From IMG/VR virus record IMGVR_UViG_3300042544_003275: a DNA stretch of 64,000 bases; one strand, 5' to 3'. Source of the DNA: an uncultured virus (IMG/VR IMGVR_UViG_3300042544_003275) (lineage: Duplodnaviria > Heunggongvirae > Uroviricota > Caudoviricetes). The notes beneath the pieces are model-generated. The model was not told the origin of the DNA, searched no databases, and was given only the letters and a program-made list of their open reading frames with translations. The position numbers were made by a program, and so were the translations under genes. Below are positions 11,861-50,176 of this stretch, one piece after another; within the stretch, counting starts at the first letter, position 1; every line of letters starts with the position of its first letter.

Positions 11861-11867
11861 CAAAATT

Positions 11868-12057: not shown

Positions 12058-12066
12058 CTAATTTTA

Positions 12067-12139
12067 GGGGCTATCGTATAATAGGCTATTACAATGGGTT
12101 TGCAACTCATAGAACACGGTTCGATCCCGTGTAGCTCCA
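12067..12139 (+). tRNA. tRNA-Ala(TGC)
   Basis: Loop TTTGCAA, G3:U70 pair. Confidence 0.9.
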
Positions 12140-12282
12140 CTAAAAAATAACTAAATATATAGGAGAACAAGGGCTGTGGACGCAATTTAAAAAGTAAAGT
12201 AGAAAGAATCGAAGAAAGAAAAAAAGTAATCGGTTCTAAACATAGAAGAAAACTAAAAAGATATTCTGAGAGTTTTAACAGA

Positions 12283-25400: not shown

Positions 25401-25585
25401 TTTGGTGAAATGTAAATAACACCGTATATTTGTAGAACAATTGAGAGAGGCAACGATTCAGATACAACTCTTGATTGTTTTTACATTTTATTTTATAAAA
25501 AATTAGGTAGAATTAAAACTTTTTACTAATTTTGTATAAAATAAGAACAAAACAACAAAAGGAAGAATAACTTTTTAATATATAC
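25401..25585 (+). promoter_or_regulatory. tandem promoters upstream of leader 3
   Basis: TTTG..TATATTTG, TTAGG..TAATTTTG, and GGAAGAA..TAATATATA. Confidence 0.6.
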
Positions 25586-25589
25586 AACA

Positions 25590-25700
25590 ATGAGAACAAT
25601 GAATTTAAATATGAACATTAATACACTGACAGTGGTGAATAATACGTTATGTATTAGACCATCTGAGGGTTTTGTCATATCTAAACGATTTGTTAGTTAA
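25590..25700 (+). CDS. attenuator leader peptide 3 (MRTMNLNMNINTLTVVNNTLCIRPSEGFVISKRFVS)
   Basis: First 23 residues use only M,R,T,N,L,I,V,C, the amino acids of the downstream tRNA array. Confidence 0.85.
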   Translation: MRTMNLNMNINTLTVVNNTLCIRPSEGFVISKRFVS

Positions 25701-25735
25701 CATGGAATAATAACAAATTAAATAAAGGATAATCG

Positions 25736-25767
25736 AAACCCTCAGTCTAAAAACTGAGGGTTTTTTT
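25736..25767 (+). terminator. attenuator terminator 3
   Basis: AAACCCTCAGT-ctaaaa-ACTGAGGGTTT + T tract; leader contains CTGAGGGTTTTG. Confidence 0.9.
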
Positions 25768-25782
25768 ATGTCTAAAAAATTT

Positions 25783-25856
25783 GGGATAGTAGCTACAATG
25801 GTCAGAGCAATCGCCTGTTAAGCGAAAGGTTGAAGGTTCGAGTCCTTCCTATCCCG
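25783..25856 (+). tRNA. tRNA-Asn(GTT)
   Basis: Loop CTGTTAA, G73. Confidence 0.9.
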
Positions 25857-25863
25857 CAAACAA

Positions 25864-25949
25864 CGGTAGGTACCCGAGCGGTCTTCAGGGACTAGTCTGA
25901 TACACTAGGTGACGTAATCACAACGTGGGTTCAAATCCCACCCTACCGA
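25864..25949 (+). tRNA. tRNA-Ile(GAT) with long variable arm
   Basis: CTAGT-CTGATAC-ACTAG then GTGA-cgtaa-TCAC arm. Confidence 0.7.
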
Positions 25950-25955
25950 CTAAAT

Positions 25956-26027
25956 GGCCCCTTCGTCCAATGGACAGGACGTCGCTCTTCTAAAGCGAAG
26001 ATACTGGTTCGAATCCAGTAGGGGTTA
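25956..26027 (+). tRNA. tRNA-Arg(TCT)
   Basis: Loop CTTCTAA. Confidence 0.9.
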
Positions 26028-26042
26028 CTAAAAAATAAATAT

Positions 26043-26116
26043 TCTCCTGTAGCTCAGTTGGTTAGAGCATCTGACTGTTAATCAGAGGGTCGCTGGTTCG
26101 AGTCCAGCCGGGAGAG
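26043..26116 (+). tRNA. tRNA-Asn(GTT)
   Basis: Canonical cloverleaf. Confidence 0.95.
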
Positions 26117-26121
26117 CAAAT

Positions 26122-26202
26122 GTCGAAGTGGTGGAATGGTAGACACGCTAACCTTAGGAGTTAGTACCAAACGGTGTGTGGGTTCGAGCCCCACCTTCGA
26201 TA
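26122..26202 (+). tRNA. tRNA-Leu(TAG)
   Basis: Loop CTTAGGA, variable arm. Confidence 0.9.
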
Positions 26203-26208
26203 CAAAAA

Positions 26209-26283
26209 GGGTCTGTAGTACTAAATGAGCAAAACTTCTGCCTGTTAAGCAGAGAGATGTCGGTTCGAATCCGACTGGACCCG
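26209..26283 (+). tRNA. tRNA-Asn(GTT), irregular D arm
   Basis: TCTGC-CTGTTAA-GCAGA. Confidence 0.75.
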
Positions 26284-26292
26284 CAAAAAAAT

Positions 26293-26365
26293 AGTCTTGT
26301 AGCTCAATCGGGGGAGCGCCACTGTTACATAGTGGAGGGAGTCGGATCGTAACCGACCAGGACTA
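26293..26365 (+). tRNA. tRNA-Val(TAC)
   Basis: CCACT-GTTACAT-AGTGG; T loop ATCGTAA. Confidence 0.8.
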
Positions 26366-26371
26366 CAAAAC

Positions 26372-26444
26372 TGTCGATTAGCTCATTTGGTAGAGCACTT
26401 GTCTGATACACAAGAGGTGGTGGGATCGTAACCCGCATCGACAA
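26372..26444 (+). tRNA. tRNA-Ile(GAT)
   Basis: CTTGT-CTGATAC-ACAAG; T loop ATCGTAA. Confidence 0.85.
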
Positions 26445-26452
26445 CTAAAAAT

Positions 26453-26535
26453 GGTCCCGTGGCCGAGTGGTGTAGAAATACGGGAGGTAGTGGATTGCAA
26501 ACTCACTCACGCTGGTTCGAATCCAGCCGGGACCT
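26453..26535 (+). tRNA. tRNA-Cys(GCA), enlarged D loop
   Basis: Loop TTGCAAA, U73. Confidence 0.75.
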
Positions 26536-26541
26536 CAAAAT

Positions 26542-26613
26542 TGTCTTGTAGCTCAATGGGAGAGCACTTCCTTGACATGGAAGAGGTAGTGGGATCGTTA
26601 CCCACCAGGACAA
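26542..26613 (+). tRNA. tRNA-Val(GAC)
   Basis: CTTCC-TTGACAT-GGAAG; T loop ATCGTTA. Confidence 0.85.
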
Positions 26614-26619
26614 CAACAA

Positions 26620-26692
26620 GCCTTTGTAGCTCAGCAGGTAGAGCAACTCCCTTGTAAGGAGAAGGTCGCAGGTTCGATTCCTGTCAAAGGCT
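26620..26692 (+). tRNA. tRNA-Thr(TGT)
   Basis: Loop CTTGTAA. Confidence 0.9.
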
Positions 26693-26696
26693 CAAT

Positions 26697-26811
26697 AATG
26701 GATGGTGATTAAGAGTGTTACTTCGTGAAATGGTATACACATTTGTCTTAAAAACAAACTTTTGAAGGTTCAAGTCCTTCAGTAAAATCACTCTTTAGAC
26801 TTTCCTCCATT
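26697..26811 (+). ncRNA. tRNA-Leu(TAA)-like core embedded in an extended stem
   Basis: D, anticodon (CTTAAAA) and T arms closed by AAGAGTG-TTACT / AGTAA-aat-CACTCTT. Confidence 0.55.
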
Positions 26812-26815
26812 ATAT

Positions 26816-26905
26816 GCTCCAGTGGCGAAACTGGTTGAAACGCGTGAGATTTAAAATCTCATACCCTCGTGGAAAACGTTGTGGGTTCAAATCCCACCTG
26901 GAGTA
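26816..26905 (+). tRNA. tRNA-Leu(TAA)
   Basis: TGAGA-TTTAAAA-TCTCA, variable arm. Confidence 0.9.
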
Positions 26906-26915
26906 CTAAATATAA

Positions 26916-26988
26916 GCAGTTATCGTATAGTCGGTGATTACACGTCCTTGGTACGGACGAGACCCCGGTTCGATTCCGGGTATCTGCT
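26916..26988 (+). tRNA. tRNA-Thr(GGT)
   Basis: CGTCC-TTGGTAC-GGACG. Confidence 0.9.
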
Positions 26989-26997
26989 CAAATAAAT

Positions 26998-27078
26998 GCC
27001 TAAATGGTGGAATGGTAGACACGATCGTTTAAGGGGCGATTGCTGAAAGGTGTGAGAGTTCGAGTCTCTCTTTAGGTA
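26998..27078 (+). tRNA. tRNA-Leu(AAG)
   Basis: ATCGT-TTAAGGG-GCGAT, Leu-type D and variable arms. Confidence 0.8.
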
Positions 27079-27110
27079 CTGAAGTGAAACGAAAGTTCAC
27101 TACAAAATAT

Positions 27111-27180
27111 GCCGCGGCTTAGTGGAAAAGGACATTGGCTCATATCCGATGTTAAGTGAGTTCGAACCTCATACGCGGTA
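27111..27180 (+). tRNA. tRNA with CAT anticodon (Met or Ile2), degenerate D arm
   Basis: ATTGG-CTCATAT-CCGAT, T arm present. Confidence 0.55.
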
Positions 27181-27185
27181 CAAAT

Positions 27186-27266
27186 GTCAGAATGGTGGAA
27201 TGGTATACACACTGGTTTCAAAAGCCAGCGCCTAACGGTATGAGAGTTCAAGTCTCTCTTCTGATA
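27186..27266 (+). tRNA. tRNA-Leu(CAA)
   Basis: CTGGT-TTCAAAA-GCCAG. Confidence 0.9.
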
Positions 27267-27288
27267 CTCGATAAAAAAACCAATAAAA

Positions 27289-28291: not shown

Positions 28292-29764
28292 ATGAAAAAT
28301 ATTGTAACAAGAATCGCACCTTCACCCACTGCTCCATTTTCTCATCTTGGAAATTTGAGAACATTATTATATAACTACTTCCTTGCTAAAAGACACGGTG
28401 GTAAATTCATTGTTCGTTTAGAAGATACGGATCGTGATCGTTATACACCATCTTTCTTAACATATTTTAAGGATATGTGTGACTGGCTTGGTATAGTACC
28501 AGATGCTTCTTATTGGAATCCAGATCCAACTATTGGTTCTTTTGTACAATCAGAAAGAGATTATTCTGATAAAGTTAATTACCTAATTGACGCTGGGTTG
28601 GCTTATTATGCTTTTGATACTAAAGATGATTTAGATGCTCTTAAATCAAAGGGTCTTAAATATGACGCAACTACAAGAATGAGTATGAACAACTCTTTAG
28701 TTATGTCTAAAGATGATTTTGACTCAACGATGAAAAATGGTACTCCATATGTTATTCGTTTTGCGGTAAATCCTGATGTTGATATCACTTTTGATGATGC
28801 TATTTTAGGTACAATTACTATTAGTACAAATACTCTTGATGATAAAGTTTTAATTAAGTCAAATGGTATTGGTTCTTATCATCTTTGTAATGTTTGTGAC
28901 GACCATGATATGGGTGTCTCTCATGTTCTTAGAGGTAACGAGTGGGTAAACTCAACACCTTTTCACATCTTAATGTATAAGGCTTTTGGTTGGGATGTTC
29001 CAACATTCTCTCACTTACCATTGATTATGAATCCAGATGGTAAAGGAAAGTTATCTAAAAGAACTGCTGCTAAATATGGTATTCCAATTGCACCAATTGG
29101 TTACTTTGATGATAATGGTGATTATAACAAAGGTTGGAAAGACCTTGGATATGACCCTAAGGCTTTTATGAACGCACTTGCTTTAATTGGATGGAATCCT
29201 GGTGGTGATGTTGAAATGATGTCTATGAAAGATATGATTGATTCTTTCTCTTTAGATAGAGTTCATAAATCAGGAGCTCGTTTTGATATGGATAAAGCAA
29301 AGTGGATTAACGCTCATCATTTGAGAACAACTCCTAATTCTTGTTTGAGACCATTTATCAATATTAAAGACGATAGATATTCTGATGATAAATTAGATAT
29401 GATTATCGATTTGGCGAAAGAAAGATCTGAATTCAAATCTGACCTGAACACTGTTGTTGATTTATTCTTTGATAACCCTGTTATTACAGATAGAAAGAAG
29501 TTAGATGATAACTATACTTCTGTTATGAGTGACTTTGGTAACAACATTGATAATATTGATTTCACATCAACAGACACGATTAAATCGTCTATCGTAGATA
29601 TCTGTGATAGATTAGGTGTTAAGATTGGTAAAGTGATGCCAGGATTGAGAATGGCACTTGTGGGTGGTATTTCTGGACCAGATTTAATGACCACAATGTT
29701 AATCTTGGATAAGAAAGAAACTAAGAAAAGAATATCACTATCGACAAGTTTACTACATATTTAA
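28292..29764 (+). CDS. gltX: glutamyl-tRNA synthetase
   Basis: TRIAPSPT, HLGN, RLEDTD, LRGNEW, KLSKR. Confidence 0.95.
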   Translation: MKNIVTRIAPSPTAPFSHLGNLRTLLYNYFLAKRHGGKFIVRLEDTDRDRYTPSFLTYFKDMCDWLGIVPDASYWNPDPTIGSFVQSERDYSDKVNYLIDAGLAYYAFDTKDDLDALKSKGLKYDATTRMSMNNSLVMSKDDFDSTMKNGTPYVIRFAVNPDVDITFDDAILGTITISTNTLDDKVLIKSNGIGSYHLCNVCDDHDMGVSHVLRGNEWVNSTPFHILMYKAFGWDVPTFSHLPLIMNPDGKGKLSKRTAAKYGIPIAPIGYFDDNGDYNKGWKDLGYDPKAFMNALALIGWNPGGDVEMMSMKDMIDSFSLDRVHKSGARFDMDKAKWINAHHLRTTPNSCLRPFINIKDDRYSDDKLDMIIDLAKERSEFKSDLNTVVDLFFDNPVITDRKKLDDNYTSVMSDFGNNIDNIDFTSTDTIKSSIVDICDRLGVKIGKVMPGLRMALVGGISGPDLMTTMLILDKKETKKRISLSTSLLHI

Positions 29765-36933: not shown

Positions 36934-37066
36934 CTATTCAAATTATGAAAGAGCATTTAGTGTTGTTGGTTGTATCATTGGTGAGTTTGATAGTCTACCA
37001 GAAGATGAATTTGACGAACTTTTAGATTCTGATGAAAGATTTGAATATTAAAAAAACCAAAATAAA

Positions 37067-37150
37067 TTTGGTAGATTAAAAACAAATACATATCTTTGTA
37101 CTATACTATTAAGAAATAGTAAAAAGGAAGAATAATATTTTAATATATAA
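37067..37150 (+). promoter_or_regulatory. tandem promoters upstream of leader 4
   Basis: TTTG..TATCTTTG and AAAAGGAAGAA..TAATATATA. Confidence 0.6.
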
Positions 37151-37156
37151 GAAATA

Positions 37157-37252
37157 ATGAAAACAATTAACGTAAATATCGCACAAGTTAACCCGCAACC
37201 TCAGGATCAGGATTCTAAGGAAGTGACTAACTATGTCTTTACAATAAGTTAA
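37157..37252 (+). CDS. attenuator leader peptide 4 (MKTINVNIAQVNPQPQDQDSKEVTNYVFTIS)
   Basis: PQPQDQD run ahead of terminator and Pro/Asp/Gln tRNAs. Confidence 0.85.
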   Translation: MKTINVNIAQVNPQPQDQDSKEVTNYVFTIS

Positions 37253-37275
37253 TAAAAACATTAAACGATTTGTAT

Positions 37276-37315
37276 AAACCCAGTTAGTCTTTGATTAACT
37301 GGGTTTTTTTTTTTT
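37276..37315 (+). terminator. attenuator terminator 4
   Basis: AAACCCAGTTAGTC-ttt-GATTAACTGGGTTT + T tract; leader GACTAACT complements AGTTAGTC. Confidence 0.9.
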
Positions 37316-37324
37316 AGTAAAAAA

Positions 37325-37398
37325 CGGGTAGTGACTAAGGTTTTAAGCACGGGGGCTCTGGAAGCTTCAGTTAGTCGGTTCGATTCCGACCTACCCGA
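37325..37398 (+). tRNA. tRNA-Pro(TGG), atypical
   Basis: C1:G72, A73; loop TCTGGAA (C33), weak D arm. Confidence 0.6.
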
Positions 37399-37404
37399 CA
37401 AAAT

Positions 37405-37477
37405 GGTCTATTGGTGAAATGGCTTATCATCCCACCCTGTCACGGTGGAGTAGACGGATCGTAACCGTCATAGACCG
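37405..37477 (+). tRNA. tRNA-Asp(GTC)
   Basis: CCACC-CTGTCAC-GGTGG; T loop ATCGTAA. Confidence 0.85.
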
Positions 37478-37539
37478 CACGAAGTATAATTGGACAGAAA
37501 CGTACTCTTTAGGGGATAGAGTAAAAGAATTCTCAAAAC

Positions 37540-37612
37540 GGATGTGAGGTCAAACGGTTAAGATGTCTGCCTGTCACGCAGTTCGGAGCGGGTTCAACTC
37601 CCGTCACGTCCG
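37540..37612 (+). tRNA. tRNA-Asp(GTC)
   Basis: Loop CTGTCAC, G73. Confidence 0.85.
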
Positions 37613-37624
37613 CAAAAATAATAA

Positions 37625-37696
37625 GGTCCTGTCGTCCAATGGTAGGATAACCCGTTGTCTGCGGGATGGTTGCGGGTTCGAGTCCCGTCAGGACCG
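37625..37696 (+). tRNA. tRNA-Asp(GTC)
   Basis: CCCG-TTGTCTG-CGGG, G73. Confidence 0.75.
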
Positions 37697-37707
37697 CTAA
37701 AATATTT

Positions 37708-37783
37708 CGGAGAGTAGAGGAGTCTGGTTTATCTCGGGCCGTTTGGGGCGGTCAGCACGTGGGTTCAAATCCCGCCTCTCCGA
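37708..37783 (+). tRNA. tRNA-Pro(TGG)
   Basis: GGCCG-TTTGGGG-CGGTC, C1:G72. Confidence 0.9.
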
Positions 37784-37803
37784 CAAAAAAATTAAAATTA
37801 AAA

Positions 37804-38049
37804 ATGTTTGTATTCAGAAGAAGTATAACAAATGAAGAATGTGAAGTAGTCGAATTAAAAGGTTCATTAGAAGGTCTTAACTATCGTTTGGATAGTTTAA
37901 TTAATATAAGTAACAGACCTGATAATAGAAGTGACTTAACTGATGAAATAAACCGTGTTAAAAACGAAATTGAAATAAAAGAAATAAAACTAAAAGAAAT
38001 GAGAACATTAGTACAATTCCAGCAACAACAAATTAATCGAACAGATTGA
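37804..38049 (+). CDS. 81-aa coiled-coil ORF whose last 16 codons form leader 5
   Basis: MFVFRRS.. in frame with MRTLVQFQQQQINRTD. Confidence 0.5.
   Translation: MFVFRRSITNEECEVVELKGSLEGLNYRLDSLINISNRPDNRSDLTDEINRVKNEIEIKEIKLKEMRTLVQFQQQQINRTD
37999..38049 (+). CDS. attenuator leader peptide 5 (MRTLVQFQQQQINRTD)
   Basis: Five Gln codons, followed by terminator and two tRNA-Gln. Confidence 0.75.
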   Translation: MRTLVQFQQQQINRTD

Positions 38050-38077
38050 TAATGGAATAATATTGTGTAAACTTTAT

Positions 38078-38111
38078 AAACCCTATTCAATCTTTTGGAT
38101 AGGGTTTTTTT
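38078..38111 (+). terminator. attenuator terminator 5
   Basis: AAACCCTATTCAA-tctt-TTGGATAGGGTTT + T tract. Confidence 0.85.
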
Positions 38112-38113
38112 AT

Positions 38114-38184
38114 TGTTGAGTCGTCTAATGGCAGGACACATGATTTTGGCTCATGTAATGGTGGTTCGAGTCCACCCCCGACAA
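38114..38184 (+). tRNA. tRNA-Gln(TTG)
   Basis: CATGA-TTTTGGC-TCATG, U1:A72. Confidence 0.85.
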
Positions 38185-38191
38185 CAAACAT

Positions 38192-38263
38192 TGAGAAGTC
38201 GTCTAATGGCAGGATACCTGACTTTGAATCAGGAAGATGTAGGTTCGACCCCTACCTTCTCAA
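38192..38263 (+). tRNA. tRNA-Gln(TTG)
   Basis: CCTGA-CTTTGAA-TCAGG, U1:A72. Confidence 0.9.
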
Positions 38264-38297
38264 CAAAAAATTAATATTGCTTTTAATATATAATCGT

Positions 38298-38996
38298 ATG
38301 AAAGCAATATTATTTACATTAATGACATTACTAATTAGTTGTAGTGTTATAGGTCAAAAAAATAGAGAGTTATATGAACAATCTATGATTAATTCTATCA
38401 GACCTGATAGTTCTAAAATCTATACTAACTTAGTTCAGATTAATGATAGTAACAAAACACTTATCAGAAAAAATATTAATGGTGAAGAGTATATCTTAGT
38501 TTGTACTTGGAAACAAAACGTTTCTTTTTATCAAAAAGATACAGTATTTAATACTGGTAGTTATCCAATCTGGGTAACAACTGCTCCTGAATTAAAAAAT
38601 AGAATTCAGAAAGAATCACCTAAAGATACAAATTTAAGATTAGTTCAATTGTTGGGTTTGCCACCGAGTGCTAAGTATAGTTACTTTGTTGAATTTTGGG
38701 TTAGACCAGTTGATTTATTTAGACCGTGTCCAGATAGTGAGATAAATGATGGTACTTGTGATTTATGTTTTCCAGAAGGAACTTCACAAGAACATATTGA
38801 TTGGATTAATGAGAATCGAATTTCAAGATACTATCAATGTGATTTATATTATCAGTATCCTTGGGGTCAATTAGGATATACTTATGATTGGAATCCTAAA
38901 AACAAATCTCATGTTGGTTTAAGTGAATTTATTATTAAAACCAATACTATTATTTATGTAAATAGAATAGTAACTACTTCAGAGTATTTAAGATAA
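38298..38996 (+). CDS. secreted/lipoprotein-like hypothetical protein
   Basis: Signal peptide MKAILFTLMTLLISC; RLVQLLGLPP, YPWGQLGYTYDW. Confidence 0.65.
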   Translation: MKAILFTLMTLLISCSVIGQKNRELYEQSMINSIRPDSSKIYTNLVQINDSNKTLIRKNINGEEYILVCTWKQNVSFYQKDTVFNTGSYPIWVTTAPELKNRIQKESPKDTNLRLVQLLGLPPSAKYSYFVEFWVRPVDLFRPCPDSEINDGTCDLCFPEGTSQEHIDWINENRISRYYQCDLYYQYPWGQLGYTYDWNPKNKSHVGLSEFIIKTNTIIYVNRIVTTSEYLR

Positions 38997-39368
38997 CTCC
39001 CATCTTCCATCAGATAGAAATTTATAAGATCCAATAAACTCAAATTTTTTCCATTGTTCCGGAGATATTAAAGAAAGGAATTCTTCACCGGATTCCTTTT
39101 TATATAAGTGATAAATTTCACCAGAGGTTGGTTCAAAATTATGAGAAGCCATATAAAGTCTTTCATTCATTTGAATTTCTGACATTAATTTTTCATACTC
39201 CCTCGTCATCTCTTCAAATTTTGACGAATAGTATTTTTTTATTTTAGAAGTTTTTTCAATTTTAAAAAGACTGATATTATCAGGTTCAAATTTTGGAGCA
39301 CCTACTTCAGTTGGATATCTTTTAGATAATCTATTCTCTACAAAACTATCAGGCATTTTCTTTTCCAT
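38988..39368 (-). CDS. DUF2452-like protein
   Basis: YPTEVGAPKFEP..GEIYHLY..FLSLISPEQW. Confidence 0.65.
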   Translation of the reverse strand: MEKKMPDSFVENRLSKRYPTEVGAPKFEPDNISLFKIEKTSKIKKYYSSKFEEMTREYEKLMSEIQMNERLYMASHNFEPTSGEIYHLYKKESGEEFLSLISPEQWKKFEFIGSYKFLSDGRWELS

Positions 39369-39483
39369 ACAAATTATATAAATAAGATAATAATAGTTTA
39401 TAGTTTGTATCATGATATTACATGATTCCGTTTTTTTAAGGTTATAAACTTTTTAATAAAAAATCAAATAATATATAATAGAC

Positions 39484-39942
39484 ATGGATAATAATGGTGT
39501 ATATAAAATGAAATTTGAGAAGTCTTCGTTTGATATTAATGAAGACTATGATAGGCTTTCTGATTATGAAAAGGAAAGAATATCCGAATTAGACGCGGAG
39601 ACTTATTTTGATTATGAAGATAACGGCAGTTACATTTGTTTTATAATTACTTCTCCAATTGAAATGAAAAAATACACATCTATATTAAGTAAGAATTTAA
39701 TAAAATTTGAGTTCTCTGATTTAACAAAAGATGTAATATCTTCTAAAATTAATTTAGAATTAGAATTAAAACCACAATTGAGTACAACTAATTCTATAAA
39801 ATATAGTTTCTTTATTGATGATGTTAATGAGTGGGTTTATAATAACTTAGAAATAGATATGATATTAGATAGAATTTCTGAAGTAGGAATGAATTCTCTT
39901 AGTCAAATTGAAAAAGATTTTCTTAAAAACTACCATTCTTAA
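39484..39942 (+). CDS. hypothetical protein with DUF6576-like C-terminus
   Basis: IDMILDRISEVGMNSLSQIEKDFL. Confidence 0.65.
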   Translation: MDNNGVYKMKFEKSSFDINEDYDRLSDYEKERISELDAETYFDYEDNGSYICFIITSPIEMKKYTSILSKNLIKFEFSDLTKDVISSKINLELELKPQLSTTNSIKYSFFIDDVNEWVYNNLEIDMILDRISEVGMNSLSQIEKDFLKNYHS

Positions 39943-39978
39943 TAATTTATCACTATATTTGTATTTAAATATAATAAT

Positions 39979-40158
39979 ATGCGAAAGATAAAAGAATTCA
40001 AGACAAGAGTTATTACAAAATATGCTCAAATGTATGCTGACTTTCTAATCGAAAGACTAAAAGAATCAAAAGACTCATACGAATTTGAGATTTGGTTTAC
40101 ACAAGCTTTACACTTAGATTTATGGTGTGAACAAAATCACGGAATTTACTTAAACTAA
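39979..40158 (+). CDS. small hypothetical protein
   Basis: MRKIKEFKTR.. after TATATTTG promoter. Confidence 0.55.
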   Translation: MRKIKEFKTRVITKYAQMYADFLIERLKESKDSYEFEIWFTQALHLDLWCEQNHGIYLN

Positions 40159-40163
40159 AAGAA

Positions 40164-40577
40164 ATGAATTTATTTTTAGATGATATCAGAACCCCAGATA
40201 TGGCTCACCATTCTGGTAAGGGACTGGGACCTGCTTATTCTTCTGAGGATAAATGGGTAATCACTCGTGACTATTTTGACTTTGTTGATATAGTTAATAA
40301 ACACTTCGATGAAATTGAATTAGTTTCATTCGATCACGATTTGGCTTGTTACAAAGATGGTGTAGAATACACTGGTAAAACAGCTGTTGATTACTTGGTG
40401 AATTATTGTTTAGATAATGATAAGAAATTTCCAAGTTGGTATGCACACACTGACAATACATCAGGACGTCAAAATATTATAGGAACAATTATAGGATATT
40501 TGAAAACGGTAGAAGGATTAGATACTTCTAAATTCAGATATTATCACAACGGAATTTTAAATGGACTAGCAGTATGA
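40164..40577 (+). CDS. cyclic-phosphate-processing receiver-like domain protein
   Basis: LFLDDIR, SFDHDL, TG, HTDN motifs. Confidence 0.7.
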   Translation: MNLFLDDIRTPDMAHHSGKGLGPAYSSEDKWVITRDYFDFVDIVNKHFDEIELVSFDHDLACYKDGVEYTGKTAVDYLVNYCLDNDKKFPSWYAHTDNTSGRQNIIGTIIGYLKTVEGLDTSKFRYYHNGILNGLAV

Positions 40578-40876
40578 GTTTAAATTTTATTACAAAACAC
40601 TTAGTATCAAAGATACAAGATGAAGTCAAGATTAAAGAAAAGATCCTCAAACACGATGGATTTTTAATGCTTGATGAACCTATTCAAGATACAAAACTAA
40701 TTAATCGATTAAATAGATATTCTCCTTATCCAAAAGAAGAATTAATTCCGATTAGTTGGTATTTTCTAAAGGGAAAAACAATTTTAGAAATTTATTCTAA
40801 AGTAAAAAGAAACGAGTTCTTTATCTACAAGTTGTTAGATGGAAAGAATCATAAAATGAGAATTAAGAAAAAATGA
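40574..40876 (+). CDS. hypothetical protein
   Basis: Coupled ORF. Confidence 0.6.
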   Translation: MSLNFITKHLVSKIQDEVKIKEKILKHDGFLMLDEPIQDTKLINRLNRYSPYPKEELIPISWYFLKGKTILEIYSKVKRNEFFIYKLLDGKNHKMRIKKK

Positions 40877-41640
40877 GTGGGAATGTTTTAGGGGTCGATT
40901 TCACATACGATCTTAGATATGATTATCACAACTATACCAGTTGTTCAGAAAGCGGGTGTGACGAAGAAGGAATTTGTCGTTGCTCTACTATTGAGGATGC
41001 TCGTGTGACTTCTGTTAACATACCAAGTATGGTTAATCATATTTATGCTAATTACTTTGATGATTCGATTTCTACAAAAAGAAACTCAACTATTAACTCT
41101 ATTTTAGGTGGTGTATCAAAAGAAATTGATATTTATACTATCGATAGAATTTTAAGAATCAACAAAGTTTATGAGCCAACAAATTGGGATGTTCAAGTTT
41201 GTGGTGGATATTATGGTGAAGAAATTGATGATGTTATCTTAGAAGATGTTGTTGCTAAAAAAATTGAAAACCAATTAGAAGATGCTTTCAACATCATTGA
41301 CTTAACTGAAAGAATTGAATTCCTTTTAATGTTGGAGTATGATAAGATTTTACCTGAATTAAAAGGACTTAGTTATAAGATAACCGAAGTAGAAAGAGAT
41401 AGTATTATTTTTGGTAGTGATGCACATTATAAAAATGTTTTAAATGAAGACTTAGAACATTATTCAGATAAAAATTATTGTAGTATCAGAGGTATTGTAA
41501 TTAGTAAAGGTGATAAATATCGTTTGATAGATGGTTATCATAGATGTTCTAAAAGTGAGAATAGATTGATTAAGGTTTTAATGGTAAATTACTATCACGA
41601 TACTGATCCTACTTCGGAGAATAAACACCTTATGTGGTAA
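40873..41640 (+). CDS. protein with Cys cluster and C-terminal ParB/Srx-like motif
   Basis: CSESGCDEEGICRC; YRLIDGYHR. Confidence 0.55.
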   Translation: MSGNVLGVDFTYDLRYDYHNYTSCSESGCDEEGICRCSTIEDARVTSVNIPSMVNHIYANYFDDSISTKRNSTINSILGGVSKEIDIYTIDRILRINKVYEPTNWDVQVCGGYYGEEIDDVILEDVVAKKIENQLEDAFNIIDLTERIEFLLMLEYDKILPELKGLSYKITEVERDSIIFGSDAHYKNVLNEDLEHYSDKNYCSIRGIVISKGDKYRLIDGYHRCSKSENRLIKVLMVNYYHDTDPTSENKHLMW

Positions 41641-41643
41641 ATT

Positions 41644-42099
41644 ATGATAGATTTTTTTCATCACGGTAGTAACATCGGATTCTCTTTAAGTGGAGTTTCC
41701 GGTTTTCTTTTACTTATTTATATACTTATTGAGATATTCTTTTTGATAATTACTAAGACTTTTCTTATTCATAAGTTTTTTCTCGGACTTAGAGTTTGTT
41801 ATCAGATTAAAAAGATGTTACCGGATTGGTGGTATATTGAAAAGATATCTTATTATACTATAAACAAAGTCCAATCTCCGTTTGATAAAAGACAAGGTGA
41901 ATATCAAATTTATGTTAAAGTAAGAAGTAAAATACCAACTGTCGATAATAATACTTGTACTGATTGGATTGAAGTAAATTGGTTAGGTACAATTAAAAGA
42001 AAAAGTTTAATGGTGAGTATCTTTGTTAAAGATAATTTACATCAATCACAGATTAAACAATGGTCTAGAGAAAAAACTTTAGAAAAACTTGGAATTTAA
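41644..42099 (+). CDS. membrane-anchored hypothetical protein (C-terminal REKTLEKLGI)
   Basis: N-terminal TM helix. Confidence 0.6.
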   Translation: MIDFFHHGSNIGFSLSGVSGFLLLIYILIEIFFLIITKTFLIHKFFLGLRVCYQIKKMLPDWWYIEKISYYTINKVQSPFDKRQGEYQIYVKVRSKIPTVDNNTCTDWIEVNWLGTIKRKSLMVSIFVKDNLHQSQIKQWSREKTLEKLGI

Positions 42100-44039
42100 T
42101 AAATCCAAGTATCATTTTCAATATCTTCTAATCGAGATTCAAGTTTATTTAATATTGATTTGATTTTTGATTTATACTCTTCTTCCTCTTCTTTTCCAAA
42201 ACTCATTCTTAATTGACCTTCGTTATCAAGAATATCTTTATACTTTTGAATTTTTATTTCTAATTTTTCTCCGATAATTACAATTAGATCTTCGATAGAA
42301 TCATTATATTCAATATAATCAATAATTCTTTTTTCATCATCCATTACGTCATAACCTAATGCTAAAGCATCTACTGGATGTAAATACTCATATCCAGTTA
42401 TATCAAATGGATTTTCTTCATCTTGTTTTGGTTGAGAAATTTTAAATATTTCAGTTTTAATGACTTTAGGAATCCACTCACCTCTATAGTTTTTAATCAT
42501 TTCATCTTTCAGTACATATTCAAAATTTCTCCAATACCTAAATTCATCAGAGAATTTATCATACCACACGGAATCAGTATCTATTTTAATAATATCATCA
42601 TCATTTTTATGGTGCCAGTTATCATCATTATCTACATCTCCATCTGACTCAATATTCATAGCTACTCTAACTGCGTTATCATCATAAAGACTATATCCAT
42701 AAGCTTCAGAATAAACAGAATCATCAACATAGATATATTCATCTATCCACTCATCAAATACAACATCATCATCATCTTGGTGATACCAACCTCTCCTTCT
42801 TGAATTTCCAAGATTTACTCTAACTGCATAATCTCTTAATATGTGATCACTATAAGGTTCAGAATAAACAGCATCGTCTTCTGCAATCATTCTATCATGC
42901 CATTCAGACCAAACACCACCTTCAACTTCTGTGTATCCACCACCAGTAGAGTCTAAGATGTAACAACCTTCTTCATCAGAGCCCTGCTCATCATCATTAT
43001 AAAGTTTACCTATTCTTATATCATATCTTCTAAAAGTGTCCATATAAGGATATCTACTATAATCATAGTCTCCTCCAAATCTAGCAACTTGAACAACCAT
43101 GTCAACATTAATTTCACTACCATTGTAAGTAATATTAGTAAAACTATGATGATTATTATTTGTTTTATAAATCCAACCTTGTTCTTTTGCAAAGTTTCTA
43201 AATTTATTTACATCAGAATCTTTAATAGTGTATTGTCTATCCATAAAATATTCAACACCTTCAAATTTTTCACCAATTCCACTACGGATAGATACAAATT
43301 TCCATACTAAAGCTCTACCTAAAATTTTATCATCTTCTCTAAGAATTACTAATCTACAAACATCAGGATTTTTAATATAGATATTAAAGATGTTTCTTTT
43401 TTCAGCCATACAAGAGTTACCTAAAGTTCCACCTCTTTCTTTATAATTATCAGATTTATACCAAAATTCAATATCATCTCCAGATACTAACTCAAAGTGT
43501 TCTCCAGATTTTTCTACAGCTGCCTTAAATGAGTTTACAAATTCCTCGACTTGTTTAGAATTATATTTACCTGGAAATACTTTATTAACTAATCTACCTA
43601 TAGCAATTTGATTTCTTCCTTTAACATATGGATCTAGTCCATCATTAAAATTACCCGCTCCTCTAAGAGGACTACTAGGTTTTATATTATCATATTGTTG
43701 GTCGTGAATATACCAAATATCATCAGCTAAATCTTTATTAGGTTTTTGGTCTAAGTCAAGACCATTAATGTATAAATCTTTAAGATCCGGAAACTTTTCA
43801 TCTAAAAGTTTCTTAACATTTCTCATTGTAGAGAATGAAAGAAATCCTTCTTTATCTAAATCAATAAAAGTAATATCTGGTTTTATATCAGTTGATTCTA
43901 TATCTAATAAATCAGTACTAATATCATCAGAAACTTTATTTAATTGTTTTCTTAAAGCAGGTGAGAAATAAATCATTGATTCATTTATAGCCTTTTCTAA
44001 TAACAAATCTAGGCTGAAACTATTATATCTTGAAATCAT
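42096..44039 (-). CDS. large phage protein of unknown function
   Basis: 647 aa; LGNSCM, GRALVW, MDRQY, YPYMDTF, acidic repeats; AATATATA upstream. Confidence 0.7.
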   Translation of the reverse strand: MISRYNSFSLDLLLEKAINESMIYFSPALRKQLNKVSDDISTDLLDIESTDIKPDITFIDLDKEGFLSFSTMRNVKKLLDEKFPDLKDLYINGLDLDQKPNKDLADDIWYIHDQQYDNIKPSSPLRGAGNFNDGLDPYVKGRNQIAIGRLVNKVFPGKYNSKQVEEFVNSFKAAVEKSGEHFELVSGDDIEFWYKSDNYKERGGTLGNSCMAEKRNIFNIYIKNPDVCRLVILREDDKILGRALVWKFVSIRSGIGEKFEGVEYFMDRQYTIKDSDVNKFRNFAKEQGWIYKTNNNHHSFTNITYNGSEINVDMVVQVARFGGDYDYSRYPYMDTFRRYDIRIGKLYNDDEQGSDEEGCYILDSTGGGYTEVEGGVWSEWHDRMIAEDDAVYSEPYSDHILRDYAVRVNLGNSRRRGWYHQDDDDVVFDEWIDEYIYVDDSVYSEAYGYSLYDDNAVRVAMNIESDGDVDNDDNWHHKNDDDIIKIDTDSVWYDKFSDEFRYWRNFEYVLKDEMIKNYRGEWIPKVIKTEIFKISQPKQDEENPFDITGYEYLHPVDALALGYDVMDDEKRIIDYIEYNDSIEDLIVIIGEKLEIKIQKYKDILDNEGQLRMSFGKEEEEEYKSKIKSILNKLESRLEDIENDTWIY

Positions 44040-44126
44040 ATAAGGTATATATTAATTTATACTTTTTATTTTTCACATTTAAGAAATAATTAGTATATTT
44101 GTAGTTGTAAAAATAATTTACTAAAA

Positions 44127-44759
44127 ATGATGATAAAAAAATTCAATCAATTTAATACATCTGAGTGGGTAGGACCCTTGAAGGTTCTTGATATTAAAGA
44201 GAATACAGTTTATACCAACTTTGGTAACTTCTCTAATAAATCAGAAAACAAATTAACTGTAGGATACTCTTATATTTTAAGAGTTATTGATAATGAAATT
44301 GTTGATACAGGAATGTCTTGTGTTGACTTAGTGGTGCTTGTTGATACTGGAACAAATTATAAAGTTCTTTCAATTAAAAGAGGTCGACCACCATTTGTTG
44401 GTATGTGGGCTAATCCAGGTGGTAACATCGATGAAGGAGAACATCCAATAGATGCAGCAATCCGTGAGTTAGAAGAAGAAACAGGTATTGTTTTAAAAGG
44501 TTCAAATTTCACATCAACTAATAAAAGTGGATATTTGACTCCGGTTGGAGTATTTGATAAACCTTATCGTGATCCAAGAAATAAAAATTGTGTTAGTTAT
44601 GCTTTTGCTACTATTCTTGATGAAATGCCTGAAGCTATAGCTGGTGATGATGCTACAGAGTGTACTTGGAACGATGTAAGTTATGATGGTGATGTAACTG
44701 TTGATATGGCATTTGACCACGCAGAGATAATTAAAAAATCAATTAATACTATTAAGTAA
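44127..44759 (+). CDS. Nudix hydrolase
   Basis: Nudix box GGNIDEGEHPIDAAIRELEEETG; RDPR, AGDDA, AFDH. Confidence 0.9.
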   Translation: MMIKKFNQFNTSEWVGPLKVLDIKENTVYTNFGNFSNKSENKLTVGYSYILRVIDNEIVDTGMSCVDLVVLVDTGTNYKVLSIKRGRPPFVGMWANPGGNIDEGEHPIDAAIRELEEETGIVLKGSNFTSTNKSGYLTPVGVFDKPYRDPRNKNCVSYAFATILDEMPEAIAGDDATECTWNDVSYDGDVTVDMAFDHAEIIKKSINTIK

Positions 44760-45244
44760 TGGATTTAAGAAATATAAAAGAACCTTTTGTTATTATACTT
44801 ATCGGACCACCATTGTCTGGTAAATCAACTTGGATTAGAGAAAACTTCCCTGATACTACCATTATTTGTCGTGATGAAATTCTAATGGATGTTTATGGTT
44901 CTAGAAACTATACTGAGGCATTTAAAAATGTAGACCAAAAAGAAGTTGATAGAGTTTTAAACCAATCATTAGTTGATGCGAGTAAAGAAAAGAAAAATGT
45001 GATTGTTGATATGACTCACATGGGTTCTAAACGCAGAAAACAAAATCTAAACTATTTCACTAACGACTATTATAAGTTGGGTGTTATCTTCCCTATTCTT
45101 TCAGATGAAGAGTATGTTATAAGAAACCAAAAAAGAATTGACGAAGAAAATAAAAATATCCCTATGAGTGTTATTAAAAGTATGATATCATCATATCAAA
45201 CAATTTCACCACAAGAAGGATTTAACAAAGTAATTTCACTTTAA
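44759..45244 (+). CDS. P-loop kinase (AAA_33, polynucleotide-kinase-like)
   Basis: GPPLSGKST, RD, VIVDMTH..RR. Confidence 0.8.
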   Translation: MDLRNIKEPFVIILIGPPLSGKSTWIRENFPDTTIICRDEILMDVYGSRNYTEAFKNVDQKEVDRVLNQSLVDASKEKKNVIVDMTHMGSKRRKQNLNYFTNDYYKLGVIFPILSDEEYVIRNQKRIDEENKNIPMSVIKSMISSYQTISPQEGFNKVISL

Positions 45245-45254
45245 AATAAAATAT

Positions 45255-45551
45255 ATGAAAAATTATGTAACACAGTTGGTAGACGCTATCACTGCATCCG
45301 GTAAAAAGTTCGCTGAGGTTAGCAAGGATTCTATCTTTGCATTTCTAGACAGAGAAGGAGTTTCTAAGAAAAGTTGGGAATCTATTTATGAAGAATTAAA
45401 ACAAATTTATCATCCATCATCAACATCTAAAAAAGAAGATAGAAAACATCTTTCAGCAGTTGTTGATTATACAGACTCTTCTCATAATGATGTGAAAGTT
45501 AGACAACCTAGAAAATCTGTTTTCTCTGAGATAACAAAAATTGCAGGATGA
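45255..45551 (+). CDS. hypothetical protein
   Basis: 98-aa ORF in operon. Confidence 0.6.
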   Translation: MKNYVTQLVDAITASGKKFAEVSKDSIFAFLDREGVSKKSWESIYEELKQIYHPSSTSKKEDRKHLSAVVDYTDSSHNDVKVRQPRKSVFSEITKIAG

Positions 45552-46420
45552 AAAGTTTAGTAACTGGTGGGTTAGGATTTGTTGGATCTAATTTGGTTGA
45601 TATGTTAATTGAATTAGGTGATGAAGTTTGGGTATTAGATGATTTATCATCAGAGTCTGCTTCAATGAAAAATGAAAATAAGAAATCCAATCTTATTGTT
45701 GGTAAAGTAGAAGACATAAAAAAACTATATGCTTTTCAAGAAGATGGATTCGATAGAATATTCCACTTAGGAGCGAAAGCAAGAATACAACCTTCTTTTG
45801 AAACACCCACCGATTATTTTAATTCAAACGCACTCGGAACATCAGAGGTAATGGATTTTGCTAGATTGACAAAATCTGGAATTGTAGTTTATGCTACAAC
45901 ATCATCTAAAAATCACGGGTCTCCTTACATAACACCTTATACATATTCTAAAGTAATTGGTGAAGGTATACTTAAAACATACTCACATTGTTTTGATGTT
46001 AATTGTGCTATGGCTACATTTTATAATGTATATGGACCAAGAGAACCAAGAGTTGGAGAATGGGCTACTGTTGTTGCGAAGTTTGGAAGACAATGGAAAG
46101 ATGGTGAAAATCTAACGGTTGTTGGTGATGGAAAACAAACAAGAGACTTCACACACGTTGAAGATATTTGTAAAGGACTTATTAAAATAAGTGAGGGTAA
46201 TTGGAAGGCTGATAACTTCGATTTAGGTCGAGGAGTTCCATATTCTATTTTAGATATTGCTAAATTGTGGGTAGGTGATGATGAATCGAGAATATCATAT
46301 ACACCTTTAAGAAAAAATGAAGGATTACACACAGAGTCTGATTGGAAATCAACCGAAGAAAAAATAGGATGGAAAGCAGAAAAGAATATTTCTGACTATA
46401 TAATGTCGTCAAAATTTTGA
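45548..46420 (+). CDS. NAD-dependent epimerase/dehydratase
   Basis: TGGLGFVG, YTYSK, NVYGP, RDFTHV. Confidence 0.9.
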   Translation: MKSLVTGGLGFVGSNLVDMLIELGDEVWVLDDLSSESASMKNENKKSNLIVGKVEDIKKLYAFQEDGFDRIFHLGAKARIQPSFETPTDYFNSNALGTSEVMDFARLTKSGIVVYATTSSKNHGSPYITPYTYSKVIGEGILKTYSHCFDVNCAMATFYNVYGPREPRVGEWATVVAKFGRQWKDGENLTVVGDGKQTRDFTHVEDICKGLIKISEGNWKADNFDLGRGVPYSILDIAKLWVGDDESRISYTPLRKNEGLHTESDWKSTEEKIGWKAEKNISDYIMSSKF

Positions 46421-48557: not shown

Positions 48558-48815
48558 TTTGGCAGATTGAAATAGTCTCCATATCTTTGTATTCACAATA
48601 AAAGATTAAAAATATACTTGGATTGAAAAATTCCAGTGGTTGGAAAACCTACTCGCAAAGTAAAGACTAATTGTTGGTATATTTTTTATAAAAGATTTGG
48701 TAGATTAAAATAAAATACTTATCTTTGTAAAACAAATCAGAAACGTCTGATATAAGTTAAACAAAAAATCTTTACAAAAGATTTGGTAGATTGAAAAAGT
48801 TTACTTATCTTTGTA
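48558..48815 (+). promoter_or_regulatory. three tandem Bacteroidota-type promoters
   Basis: TTTGG(C/T)AGATT...TATCTTTGTA at ~48558, ~48696 and ~48782. Confidence 0.7.
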
Positions 48816-48849
48816 AAACAAAATTGAAATAAAGAGTATAAAAATATAT

Positions 48850-48922
48850 CGCGGAGTAGAGAAGTTGGAATCTCGTCAGGCTCATAACCTGAAGGTCACT
48901 GGTTCGAGTCCAGTCTCCGCTA
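48850..48922 (+). tRNA. tRNA-Met(CAT), initiator-like
   Basis: C1:U72 mismatch, loop CTCATAA. Confidence 0.9.
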
Positions 48923-48944
48923 CTAAACAGTTCTCAACGGAGAA

Positions 48945-49860
48945 CAACGTTCTTTGAAGTATTAAAAATTTTACTGAAACTCGACTTCGGTCTTAGTTCT
49001 TCGGAACAGAGTGTGTAAGTAAAGGGCGGCTTATAGTCCTTAAATAAACCTCGAAAGGGGGATAAAGTGGATACAAATGCTAATTGTATCTGCGTCTTGA
49101 GAGTTCTTCGGAACAATTGAGGTCGAGTAAGCAAGTGGGACACCACAAGTTCTGAGTAGTCGAGGGTAACACTGTAGACCAAATGAGTTTGTGACCGGGC
49201 AATTGTAGATTGTTTGGTTGACCTCGGAAGAGGAATAGGAATAACCCATAGGAATTATGTAAGAAATAAAGACTCACCGGTTTTTACTATTGCGAGTTCC
49301 AACTTAAAAGGTGTCTTAAAGTTGAAAGACAATCAGTTGTACAGGTGGTGCTGTTAATTGACACTAATCTCCCTACCAAGGGAGTAGATAAACCGAAAGG
49401 TGAGTCGTGGTGAAGATATCTTGAAGAGTTGTGATGGAGGCATCACACGGAGTAGTCCAGTATTCTTGAGACCAAAAGTCATGAGAGCTGAGAGGTGACC
49501 ACTACTTCGACATAATCTACTAGCACTAAATTTCTAACTGTTAATTGGAAACATTTAAAAATAAGAAATCAAAAGTGTTACCTAGTTACTGATGAAAGGT
49601 ACCTACTTAGTCGTGAGTGTTCACGGCCACTGAAGCTCGAAAGGCCGATGTGATTTCATCGAAAAACTTATAGAGGGTCGAACCTCGAATCAGCTCGCAA
49701 GGTTGAATAAGCGGATTAAATGGAGAGTAAACAGTAACTCAAGGAGTGGTTAGTCTAACTAACCGGTACTGACAGAATACTACTCAAAAGGTAGTGGATA
49801 AGTTTGGGAAATCATAATCCAACTAAAGATCTGTCGTATAGGATGTAATCTCAGTCCTTT
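48945..49860 (+). ncRNA. large structured non-coding RNA (GOLLD-like candidate)
   Basis: ~900 nt, raised GC, no credible ORF, many UUCG/GNRA hairpins, flanked by tRNAs. Confidence 0.6.
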
Positions 49861-49867
49861 TTTATAT

Positions 49868-49956
49868 GGCCTGTTCGTCTAGGGGAATACTTTCATAGAA
49901 AGTAGGATGGATATCTCTTCAGATATCAGACATTGGTTCGAATCCAATACAGGCTA
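49868..49956 (+). tRNA. tRNA-Glu-like with D-loop hairpin insertion and 8-nt anticodon loop
   Basis: GGCCTGT/ACAGGCT acceptor, GATAT-CTCTTCAG-ATATC. Confidence 0.55.
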
Positions 49957-50042
49957 CAAGTTTTCGTAGTGGTTAACTTTCCCTTTAATTAGGGGGTCTA
50001 CTGAAATAAGTAAGTAGGGTGGTTACCAAACACCACACAAAT

Positions 50043-50149
50043 GGCCCGTTCGTCTACAGGACTCGCAAGAGAAACTGAAACCTCGGTAGAAGTTTAGGAT
50101 ATCCAACTTTTCGGTTGGAAGATAGAGTGTTCGAATCCTCTACGGGCTA
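50043..50149 (+). tRNA. tRNA-Glu-like with ~40-nt D loop and 8-nt anticodon loop
   Basis: GGCCCGT/ACGGGCT acceptor, TCCAA-CTTTTCGG-TTGGA. Confidence 0.5.
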
Positions 50150-50176
50150 CAAAAAATTGACCCAAACGATGAAGGA

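Follow-up and report, generated by a model that had tools for sequence, protein, structure and literature searches.

Candidate leader-peptide attenuators in front of the tRNA genes of huge phages

A tRNA operon in a genome fragment of an uncultured virus of the Caudoviricetes (IMG/VR record IMGVR_UViG_3300042544_003275) appears to be controlled by a ribosome-mediated, trp-style leader-peptide transcription attenuator, in which stalling of the ribosome at codons cognate to the downstream tRNAs would lead to read-through of a terminator; we put the probability of this reading at about 0.8. The fragment is a stretch of 64,000 nt with a G+C content of 30% (hereafter the window, to which coordinates refer unless another record is named), and the parts of the units described all lie on its + strand. 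The element in question is a 31-codon open reading frame (ORF) at 37157-37252 that contains a run of Pro, Gln and Asp codons and is followed by an intrinsic terminator, by genes for tRNA-Pro and tRNA-Asp and, beyond a second terminator, by genes for tRNA-Gln. An earlier note on this DNA had proposed an attenuator with codons matching the downstream tRNAs, and at the level of sequence the proposal is supported by the anatomy of the unit, by a permutation test, by a reading-frame control and by conservation. The nearest records to the window are two genomes labelled 'uncultured phage', LR745206.1 and LR756502.1 (634,780 and 642,428 bp), which over the leader and the first tRNAs are 84% and 73% identical to it, respectively.

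The Pro/Gln/Asp leader and the proposed glutamine gate

The unit begins with a promoter-like site at 37067-37100, an exact match to a two-box pattern that recurs in the window and the sole such match upstream of the unit. The pattern, which we take to be the two-box promoter type of the Bacteroidota, has ten matches in the window as against 0.39 expected, and eight of the ten precede tRNA or non-coding RNA units. A search of the window with this pattern gave no match from 37101 to 46414, and the Pro, Asp and Gln tRNA genes are therefore reachable only by read-through of a terminator. The leader has an ATG start and 31 codons plus the stop codon; orthologous ORFs occur in four diverged relatives (L001, L002, L014 and L015), which keep the whole unit with a leader make-up that varies with the tRNA set. 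The codon run claimed in the earlier note, CCG CAA CCT CAG GAT CAG GAT, is present as codons 13-19 (37193-37213) and comprises two Pro, three Gln and two Asp codons, an additional Gln codon being found at position 10. Within the run the two Asp codons and CCG are read by the tRNAs encoded directly downstream, and the Gln codons of this leader fit tRNA-Gln(ttg), which is located behind the second gate.

The intrinsic terminator (37276-37315) consists of a hairpin at 37276-37306, with 14 pairs of which five are G-C, a loop of 3 nt and a predicted energy of -17.7 kcal/mol, and a T run (12 T) at 37304-37315. Four terminator-like sites were counted between 35000 and 40000, where 1.1 would be expected, and the two strongest are the two gates. 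The gap between the T run and the first tRNA gene is 9 nt and there is therefore no space for a separate promoter between them. The genes that follow are tRNA-Pro(tgg) at 37325-37399, three copies of tRNA-Asp(gtc) at 37405-37478, 37540-37613 and 37625-37697 (ARAGORN and Rfam) and a further tRNA-Pro(tgg) at 37708-37784 (ARAGORN). The first tRNA-Pro is a weak call, scoring 29.5 bits in Rfam against a cut-off of 29 and being found by ARAGORN at a relaxed threshold only, but its counterparts in the two nearest relatives are called by ARAGORN at the default. Two Pro genes and three Asp genes had been announced in that sequence, and whilst the gene counts were correct the order was not, the actual one being Pro, Asp, Asp, Asp, Pro.

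Alternative pairings of the transcript connect the end of the leader ORF with the terminator. Region 1 (37183-37194), the anti-antiterminator strand, lies immediately 5' of the regulatory codons and pairs with region 2 in the minimum free energy (MFE) structure of the terminator state. Region 2 (37224-37244, leader codons 23-29), located by repeat search, RNAduplex and folding, is the 5' strand of the predicted antiterminator, and region 3 (37270-37289; repeat search and RNAduplex) is both the 3' strand of the antiterminator and the 5' arm of the terminator, the 3' arm of which is region 4. It had been claimed that an 8-mer at 37225-37232 pairs with the terminator, and its complement is found in the 5' arm at 37282-37289; the suggested extension by a 5-mer (TACAA/TTGTA) is also real and joins 37240-37244 to 37270-37274. 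The arms of the inverted repeat, 37225-37244 and 37270-37289, are 20 nt long and 80% complementary, and the RNAduplex energy of the 2:3 pairing is -12.8 kcal/mol, a value at least as good being obtained with 10 of 500 dinucleotide shuffles. For all five homologues of the Pro/Gln/Asp unit (the window, L001, L002, L014 and L015) the predicted MFE structure contains 1:2 and 3:4, and with the 3' arm blocked it contains 2:3. The 1:2 pairing of L002 is shifted and is built from different, re-matched letters. On standard figures for the ribosomal footprint, coverage of the transcript would extend to ~37224 when the last Asp codon of the run is in the A site, and a ribosome stalled there would, in this model, end just short of region 2.

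A second gate of the same kind follows the second tRNA-Pro. Its leader, of 16 codons with five for Gln, lies at 37999-38049 in frame with a longer 81-codon ORF that starts at 37804, and its intrinsic terminator (38078-38107; 13 pairs, -16.0 kcal/mol) ends 7 nt before the first of two tRNA-Gln(ttg) genes (38114-38185 and 38192-38264; ARAGORN and Rfam). The expectation of two Gln genes beyond a second gate was thus borne out. The Gln leader of the two relatives (L001 and L002) is a free-standing ORF of 16 and 17 codons, and it seems that an insertion of ~195 nt has extended the ORF in the window (37804-38049); with either form of the ORF the ribosomes would traverse the Gln run and end at the same stop codon. 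The alternative pairing of the second terminator, at -9.6 kcal/mol, spans this stop codon and is equalled by 5 of 500 dinucleotide shuffles.

Two other observations concern the first tRNA genes of the operon. The first two tRNA-Asp genes are separated by a spacer of 61 nt (37479-37539) that contains a small hairpin and, as judged by eye, is mostly the same in LR745206.1; the spacer may represent a small RNA released by processing or a degenerate tRNA. The antiterminator strands repeat pieces of the first tRNA-Pro, 37219-37230 agreeing with 37327-37338 in 11 of 12 positions and 37281-37289 with 37368-37376 in nine of nine, and there is 85% complementarity between region 2 and 37369-37381, which lies in the same gene. 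These repeats may derive from a piece of tRNA, may be fortuitous, or may reflect contact of the leader with the precursor of the tRNA.

Sister units and the match between codons and tRNAs

There are five leader-terminator-tRNA units in the window. The Tyr/Glu unit (10295-11168) has a promoter at 10295-10328, a leader at 10363-10437 with three Tyr and two Glu codons and a terminator at 10463-10490, and is followed by genes for tRNA-Tyr, three tRNA-Glu and tRNA-Tyr. The Ile/Gly/Ala unit (11594-12140), which serves tRNA-Ile, Gly, Ala and Ala, has a leader at 11642-11722, in which 12 of 25 residues are Ile, Gly or Ala, and a terminator at 11745-11774. The Asn/Leu/Thr/Val/Ile/Arg unit (25401-27267) has a leader at 25590-25700, with 23 of 35 residues matching, a terminator at 25735-25764 and 15 genes for Asn, Ile, Arg, Leu, Val and Thr tRNAs, or 17 at the relaxed threshold; its antiterminator has an energy of -21.6 kcal/mol and none of 500 shuffles was as good. 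The two nearest relatives possess the window's five families and two more, of which the sixth has a leader rich in His, Lys, Phe and Trp before tRNAs for His, Phe, Trp and Lys, and the seventh a leader with many Ser and Arg residues before tRNAs for Arg and Ser. The three huge-phage genomes together thus yield 19 units in seven families. In all units an open frame starts at an ATG and ends in a stop codon 18-34 nt before the terminator, and in most sister units the distance from the end of the hairpin to the first tRNA is 5-22 nt; among the larger gaps, two gaps in the ARAGORN calls hold a tRNA found at the relaxed threshold only, and one in L010 is ~235 nt.

The correspondence between leaders and tRNA blocks was assessed by reassigning the leaders among the tRNA blocks within each genome and counting residue matches. 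For the window 49 of 128 leader residues match, compared with a permutation mean of 23.0, and 1 of 120 permutations reached the observed value. The corresponding figures were 78 of 188 for LR745206.1 (mean 30.6) and 66 of 188 for LR756502.1 (mean 26.3), with 1 of 5040 permutations reaching the observed value in either case. The true pairing of leaders and blocks is the unique maximum in all three of these related genomes, which remains true when codons are compared with anticodons or the relaxed tRNA sets are used. The match is also specific to the reading frame, since the 504 positions yield 193 matches in the frame of the ORF but 90 and 57 in the alternative frames, and the ORF frame gives the most matches in each of the 19 units. 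Furthermore, the matched leader codons are rarer synonyms than is usual for the 61 ORFs of the window, with a mean relative usage of 0.453 compared to 0.57 (sd 0.028); 4 of 20000 simulations were as low, and 12 of 53 matched codons end in G as against 8% in the ORFs. The rarer codons could heighten the sensitivity of a sensor, or they could merely serve the RNA pairings.

The pairing capacity seen in the Pro/Gln/Asp unit extends to the others. In each of the 19 units the end of the ORF supplies a partner for the 5' arm of the terminator, with RNAduplex energies of -9.6 to -21.2 kcal/mol, and the fraction of 300 mononucleotide shuffles that were as good ranged from 0.000 to 0.100. Dinucleotide shuffles of ten representative units were as good in 3, 33, 0, 10, 5, 2, 0, 28, 109 and 0 of 500 cases. 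With three units of a cultured phage, described below, included and the 3' arm blocked, 16 of 22 units have the 2:3 pairing as their MFE structure. Upstream pairing of region 2 over 7 nt or more is predicted for 14 of the 22, and there is little covariation with which the 1:2 pairing could be tested.

More distant genomes were reached by scanning IMG/VR. A scan with the terminator pattern added two units of the Pro/Gln/Asp type, and hand counts of their leaders show the dependence of leader make-up on the tRNA set. L014, behind whose leader only Asp and Pro tRNAs follow, has one Gln, three Asp and three Pro codons; L015, with Gln, Asp and Pro tRNAs directly behind the leader, has four Gln, two Asp and three Pro codons; and the leaders of this type that have their Gln tRNAs behind a second gate contain three to five Gln codons. 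A scan with the promoter pattern gave 89 matches at 80 loci, of which 18 have a tRNA no more than 600 nt away, and yielded three units, L016 by a strict filter and L026 and L047 by eye; the leaders of the last two were scored as matching their tRNAs. In the overall judgement three of the five IMG/VR units fit, among them the two of the Pro/Gln/Asp type, a fourth fits only in part and a fifth does not fit. The tRNA region examined (L012) of the 735-kb phage LR756501.1 contained no terminators or leaders of this kind.

The layout is also found in Cellulophaga phage phi4:1 (NC_021788.1), which has three tRNA blocks, each of them preceded by a promoter-like site, then by a short ORF and finally by a terminator adjoining the first tRNA. 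The units lie at 9066-9196, 9990-10170 and 11735-11926 of L013 (NC_021788.1 78000-98000), with their terminators at 9160-9187, ~10135-10161 and 11889-11920. By hand count the leader before the block Pro, Glu, Gln, His, Leu, Leu, Arg agrees with its tRNAs at 11 of 21 residues, the leader before Ala, Lys, Ile, Gly, Met, Asp, Thr, Val, Arg, Met does so at 22 of 26, and the leader before Tyr, Ser, Ser, Asn, Trp, Phe at 14 of 31. The second of the phi4:1 ORFs, whose start codon is uncertain, is annotated as the hypothetical protein gp075, but it is probably a leader peptide and not a protein gene.

Six RNA libraries contain small shares of the window's stretch. Contigs from four of them cover the leader, terminator and tRNAs of relatives, and one contig (X19, record 3) spans the terminator, joining tRNA-Pro to leader-like sequence. 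DNA carry-over is possible in libraries of this type, so that these contigs are neutral with regard to transcription, transcript ends and levels, and read-through.

Proposed mechanism and alternative explanations

These features are consistent with the following course of events. Transcription would start from the promoter at 37067-37100 and the 31-codon leader would be translated while it is being made. If matching aminoacyl-tRNAs were scarce, a ribosome would stall in the Pro/Gln/Asp run (37193-37213) and cover region 1, leaving region 2 free to pair with region 3; the terminator would then be blocked and RNA polymerase would continue into the tRNA-Pro, the three tRNA-Asp and the second tRNA-Pro genes. 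If decoding were smooth, the ribosome would pass through region 2 to the stop codon, 1:2 would re-form behind it, regions 3 and 4 would form the terminator, and transcription would stop 9 nt before the first tRNA. The second gate would respond to Gln only. The Gln tRNAs need both gates to be open and the first leader also has Gln codons, and the logic is therefore a nested one, in which a shortage of Gln would open both gates and a shortage of Pro or Asp the first only. The outcome would be a demand-driven negative feedback, each set of tRNAs being made when its own codons are read slowly. In nature the trigger could be a mismatch of codon usage, starvation for amino acids or an attack on tRNAs by the host. 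We infer the translation of the leader, the stalling of ribosomes within it, and the direction and size of the response.

A number of observations weigh against this interpretation. Pro codon CCT is not read by the window's tRNA-Pro(tgg) under the wobble rules used, and by hand count only 4 of 30 leader residues match the tRNAs immediately behind the first gate, or 8 of 30 when Gln is counted. The leader of L016 is rich in Thr and its available 1.1 kb contains no tRNA-Thr, so that it fits only in part. The results of the dinucleotide shuffles are weak for the Ile/Gly/Ala unit (33 of 500) and for two phi4:1 units (28 and 109 of 500), and the predicted MFE structure lacks the antiterminator in 6 of the 22 units. 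The three huge-phage genomes being related, their permutation tests are not independent and amount to one strong result seen three times. The ORFs were picked after the peptides were known, although for the most part only one ORF of at least 20 codons was available. Matched residues are no more conserved among orthologues, either positionally or synonymously, than the others, with 97 identical, 25 synonymous and 95 non-synonymous cases among matched residues and 101, 25 and 83 among the rest. Lastly, inside the Tyr/Glu block (~10749-10835) a promoter-like box, recognised by eye, and a small hairpin with a T run (10806-10821) stand before the third tRNA-Glu, which suggests that not every tRNA, this one for example, is dependent on the gate alone.

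Four other explanations have to be considered, and the frame- and block-specific codon match is unexplained by any of them. The leaders might serve as a general sensor of translation, which detects the presence of a ribosome or its overall speed and not particular tRNAs, the make-up of the leader being secondary. The hairpin logic works with any slow codon, the rare synonymous codons would slow ribosomes generally and, as described above, the positions of matched residues are not conserved, but a general sensor does not account for the enrichment of each of the seven leader families in exactly the amino acids of its own block, or for the variation of Gln codons with Gln tRNAs, and it is considered unlikely. 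Alternatively, an ordinary small gene or a chance ORF might happen to precede an ordinary terminator, the tRNAs being produced by constitutive leak-through or through a phage antitermination factor. Phage tRNA regions are known to contain small ORFs and terminators, the annotation of gp075 in phi4:1 is simply that of a hypothetical protein, and some promoters of the same type adjoin tRNA genes without a leader (tRNA-Met at 10136 and 48850 in the window, and L030, L043 and L056). However, the frame-specific match of leader and tRNAs, the complementarity of the ORF end to the terminator arm and the recurrence of the arrangement in an unrelated phage lineage would all be left unexplained, and this possibility is very unlikely.

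As a third possibility, the logic might be reversed, with stalling favouring termination, or the hairpin might be mainly a processing or stabilising element at the 5' end of the tRNA precursor. The hairpin does adjoin the first tRNA, where structure in the 5' leader could affect processing by RNase P, but the long T run is a feature of terminators, and since region 2 lies downstream of the regulatory codons but ahead of the stop codon a ribosome stalled at those codons would leave it free; the chances of either variant are accordingly slight. It is least probable of all that the codon run pairs directly with the anticodons of uncharged tRNAs in the manner of a T-box, without a ribosome. Such sensing would share the output logic, in which the status of a tRNA controls a terminator, and the codons are indeed displayed between two helices. 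Against it stand the absence of a match to the T-box or to another fitting Rfam family (whole window at the gathering thresholds, 37040-37330 at E values up to 10), the presence in every unit of the translatable frame described above together with a match that is specific to that frame, and the occurrence of several different consecutive codons, which is unlike a single specifier.

If the attenuation reading is extended from the window to the other units, it is probable, though with rather less assurance, that phage tRNA genes are organised as amino-acid-specific regulons, each under a separate sensor that relies on ribosome stalling and is composed of the codons decoded by the tRNAs of that regulon, and that the feedback acts on decoding capacity and not on amino-acid synthesis, in huge phages of Bacteroidota as well as in cultured Cellulophaga phages.

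Known systems and other features of the window

Attenuators with a leader peptide are well established for amino-acid operons, such as trp, his, leu and pheA, and the thr and ilv leaders are multivalent. The units described here resemble them in having a short leader ORF, a cluster of regulatory codons, the predicted pairings 2:3 and 3:4, perhaps also 1:2, and an intrinsic terminator, and they resemble the thr and ilv leaders in that several amino acids are represented in one leader. They differ from the amino-acid operons in that tRNA genes are regulated and not biosynthetic enzymes, the loop acting on tRNA supply, and in that the phage bank of units splits the tRNA set by amino acid and places two gates in series for Gln. 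No sequence or Rfam relationship to the amino-acid operon leaders was found. With the whole window searched at the gathering thresholds and 37040-37330 at E values up to 10, no Rfam family fits the leader, and the 19 weak hits in the latter interval include no match to the His, Leu, Thr or Trp leader families or to the T-box. The pheM leader attenuator of the Escherichia coli pheST operon, which encodes phenylalanyl-tRNA synthetase, is a further parallel, as leader-peptide attenuation there acts on a component of translation and responds to the cognate aminoacyl-tRNA; unlike the phage units, pheM is bacterial, is concerned with one amino acid and controls a synthetase protein, whereas the product here is tRNA. 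T-box riboswitches likewise let the status of a tRNA choose between terminator and antiterminator before translation-related genes, but they bind uncharged tRNA directly through one specifier codon and without a ribosome, whereas the phage units have an ORF that is predicted to be translated.

To our knowledge the leader-peptide attenuators described so far all regulate genes for amino-acid biosynthesis or for synthetases, and control of tRNA genes would depart from that. No description of leader-peptide control of tRNA genes was found in the literature searched, the coverage of which left out most subscription journals, and the available parts of Al-Shayeb et al. 2020 (PMC7162821) contain 'attenuat' and 'leader' 0 times. 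The proposed mechanism is of a known kind; what would be new is the target, namely tRNA genes, the phage setting and the bank of amino-acid-specific gates.

How and why phages carry and control tRNA genes is an old open question. If the proposal is correct, a phage gauges decoding for each amino acid and transcribes the matching tRNA genes on demand, so that classical attenuation would be extended from amino-acid supply to tRNA supply. The clustering of isoacceptors and the order of tRNA genes in phage genomes would find an explanation, and a phage could answer a codon mismatch with its host, or defences that deplete tRNAs, only when and where they act. Moreover, the leaders would be naturally occurring sensors of individual tRNA species. 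The presence of this layout in the cultured phage phi4:1 makes a bench test possible in a harmless marine host, Cellulophaga baltica.

The window as a whole contains 33 tRNA genes according to ARAGORN, to which the relaxed threshold adds four credible ones, and the two nearest relatives have 61 and 50 Rfam matches to tRNA. The DNA sequencing runs in which the window's stretch is contained are lake-water metagenomes, among them 18 that include at least half of the words sampled from it. The available parts of PMC7162821 place all genomes of more than 634 kb in the Mahaphage clade, for which Bacteroidetes hosts are predicted. Pfam searches of the window identified two enzymes between the tRNA blocks, a gene similar to class I Glu/Gln-tRNA synthetases at 28292-29761 (E 2.3e-70) and a PP-loop enzyme at 15705-16289 (E 3.1e-30), and elsewhere a ClpB-like ATPase, a collagen-repeat protein of 1630 residues and sugar-nucleotide enzymes.

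A conserved box of 24 nt, revealed by a repeat count, lies in the 5' untranslated leader of the Pro/Gln/Asp unit at 37126-37149, 7 nt before the ATG. Its three copies in the window (10095-10118, 25561-25584 and 37126-37149; 0.04 expected) are situated in the transcribed leader before tRNA-Met 10136 and immediately before the ATG of two leader ORFs, and its 3' part is kept in the relatives. The box could be a second type of promoter, a processing site or a site of ribosome loading. At three IMG/VR loci (L032, L036 and L070), and also in L012, the promoter pattern is followed by a G-rich hairpin and a recurring short motif, then by structured RNA and tRNA genes, and a motif similar to the recurring one is present in the window at 48940-48955, after a tRNA-Met; hairpin and motif may represent another conserved non-coding element.

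The window also encodes a GOLLD RNA at 49448-49857 (278.7 bits in Rfam), which is flanked on one side by that tRNA-Met (48850-48923) and on the other by a tRNA-Ser-like gene (49868-49957). The promoter pattern occurs three times in tandem (48558, 48696 and 48782) upstream of the GOLLD RNA in this region (48558-49957), and the segment 48940-49447 may be a 5' part of the same RNA. Further downstream, at ~50043-50150, is a sequence called by neither ARAGORN nor Rfam, the ends of which resemble the tRNA-Ser-like gene and the middle of which is longer, and it may be a tRNA gene with an insert.

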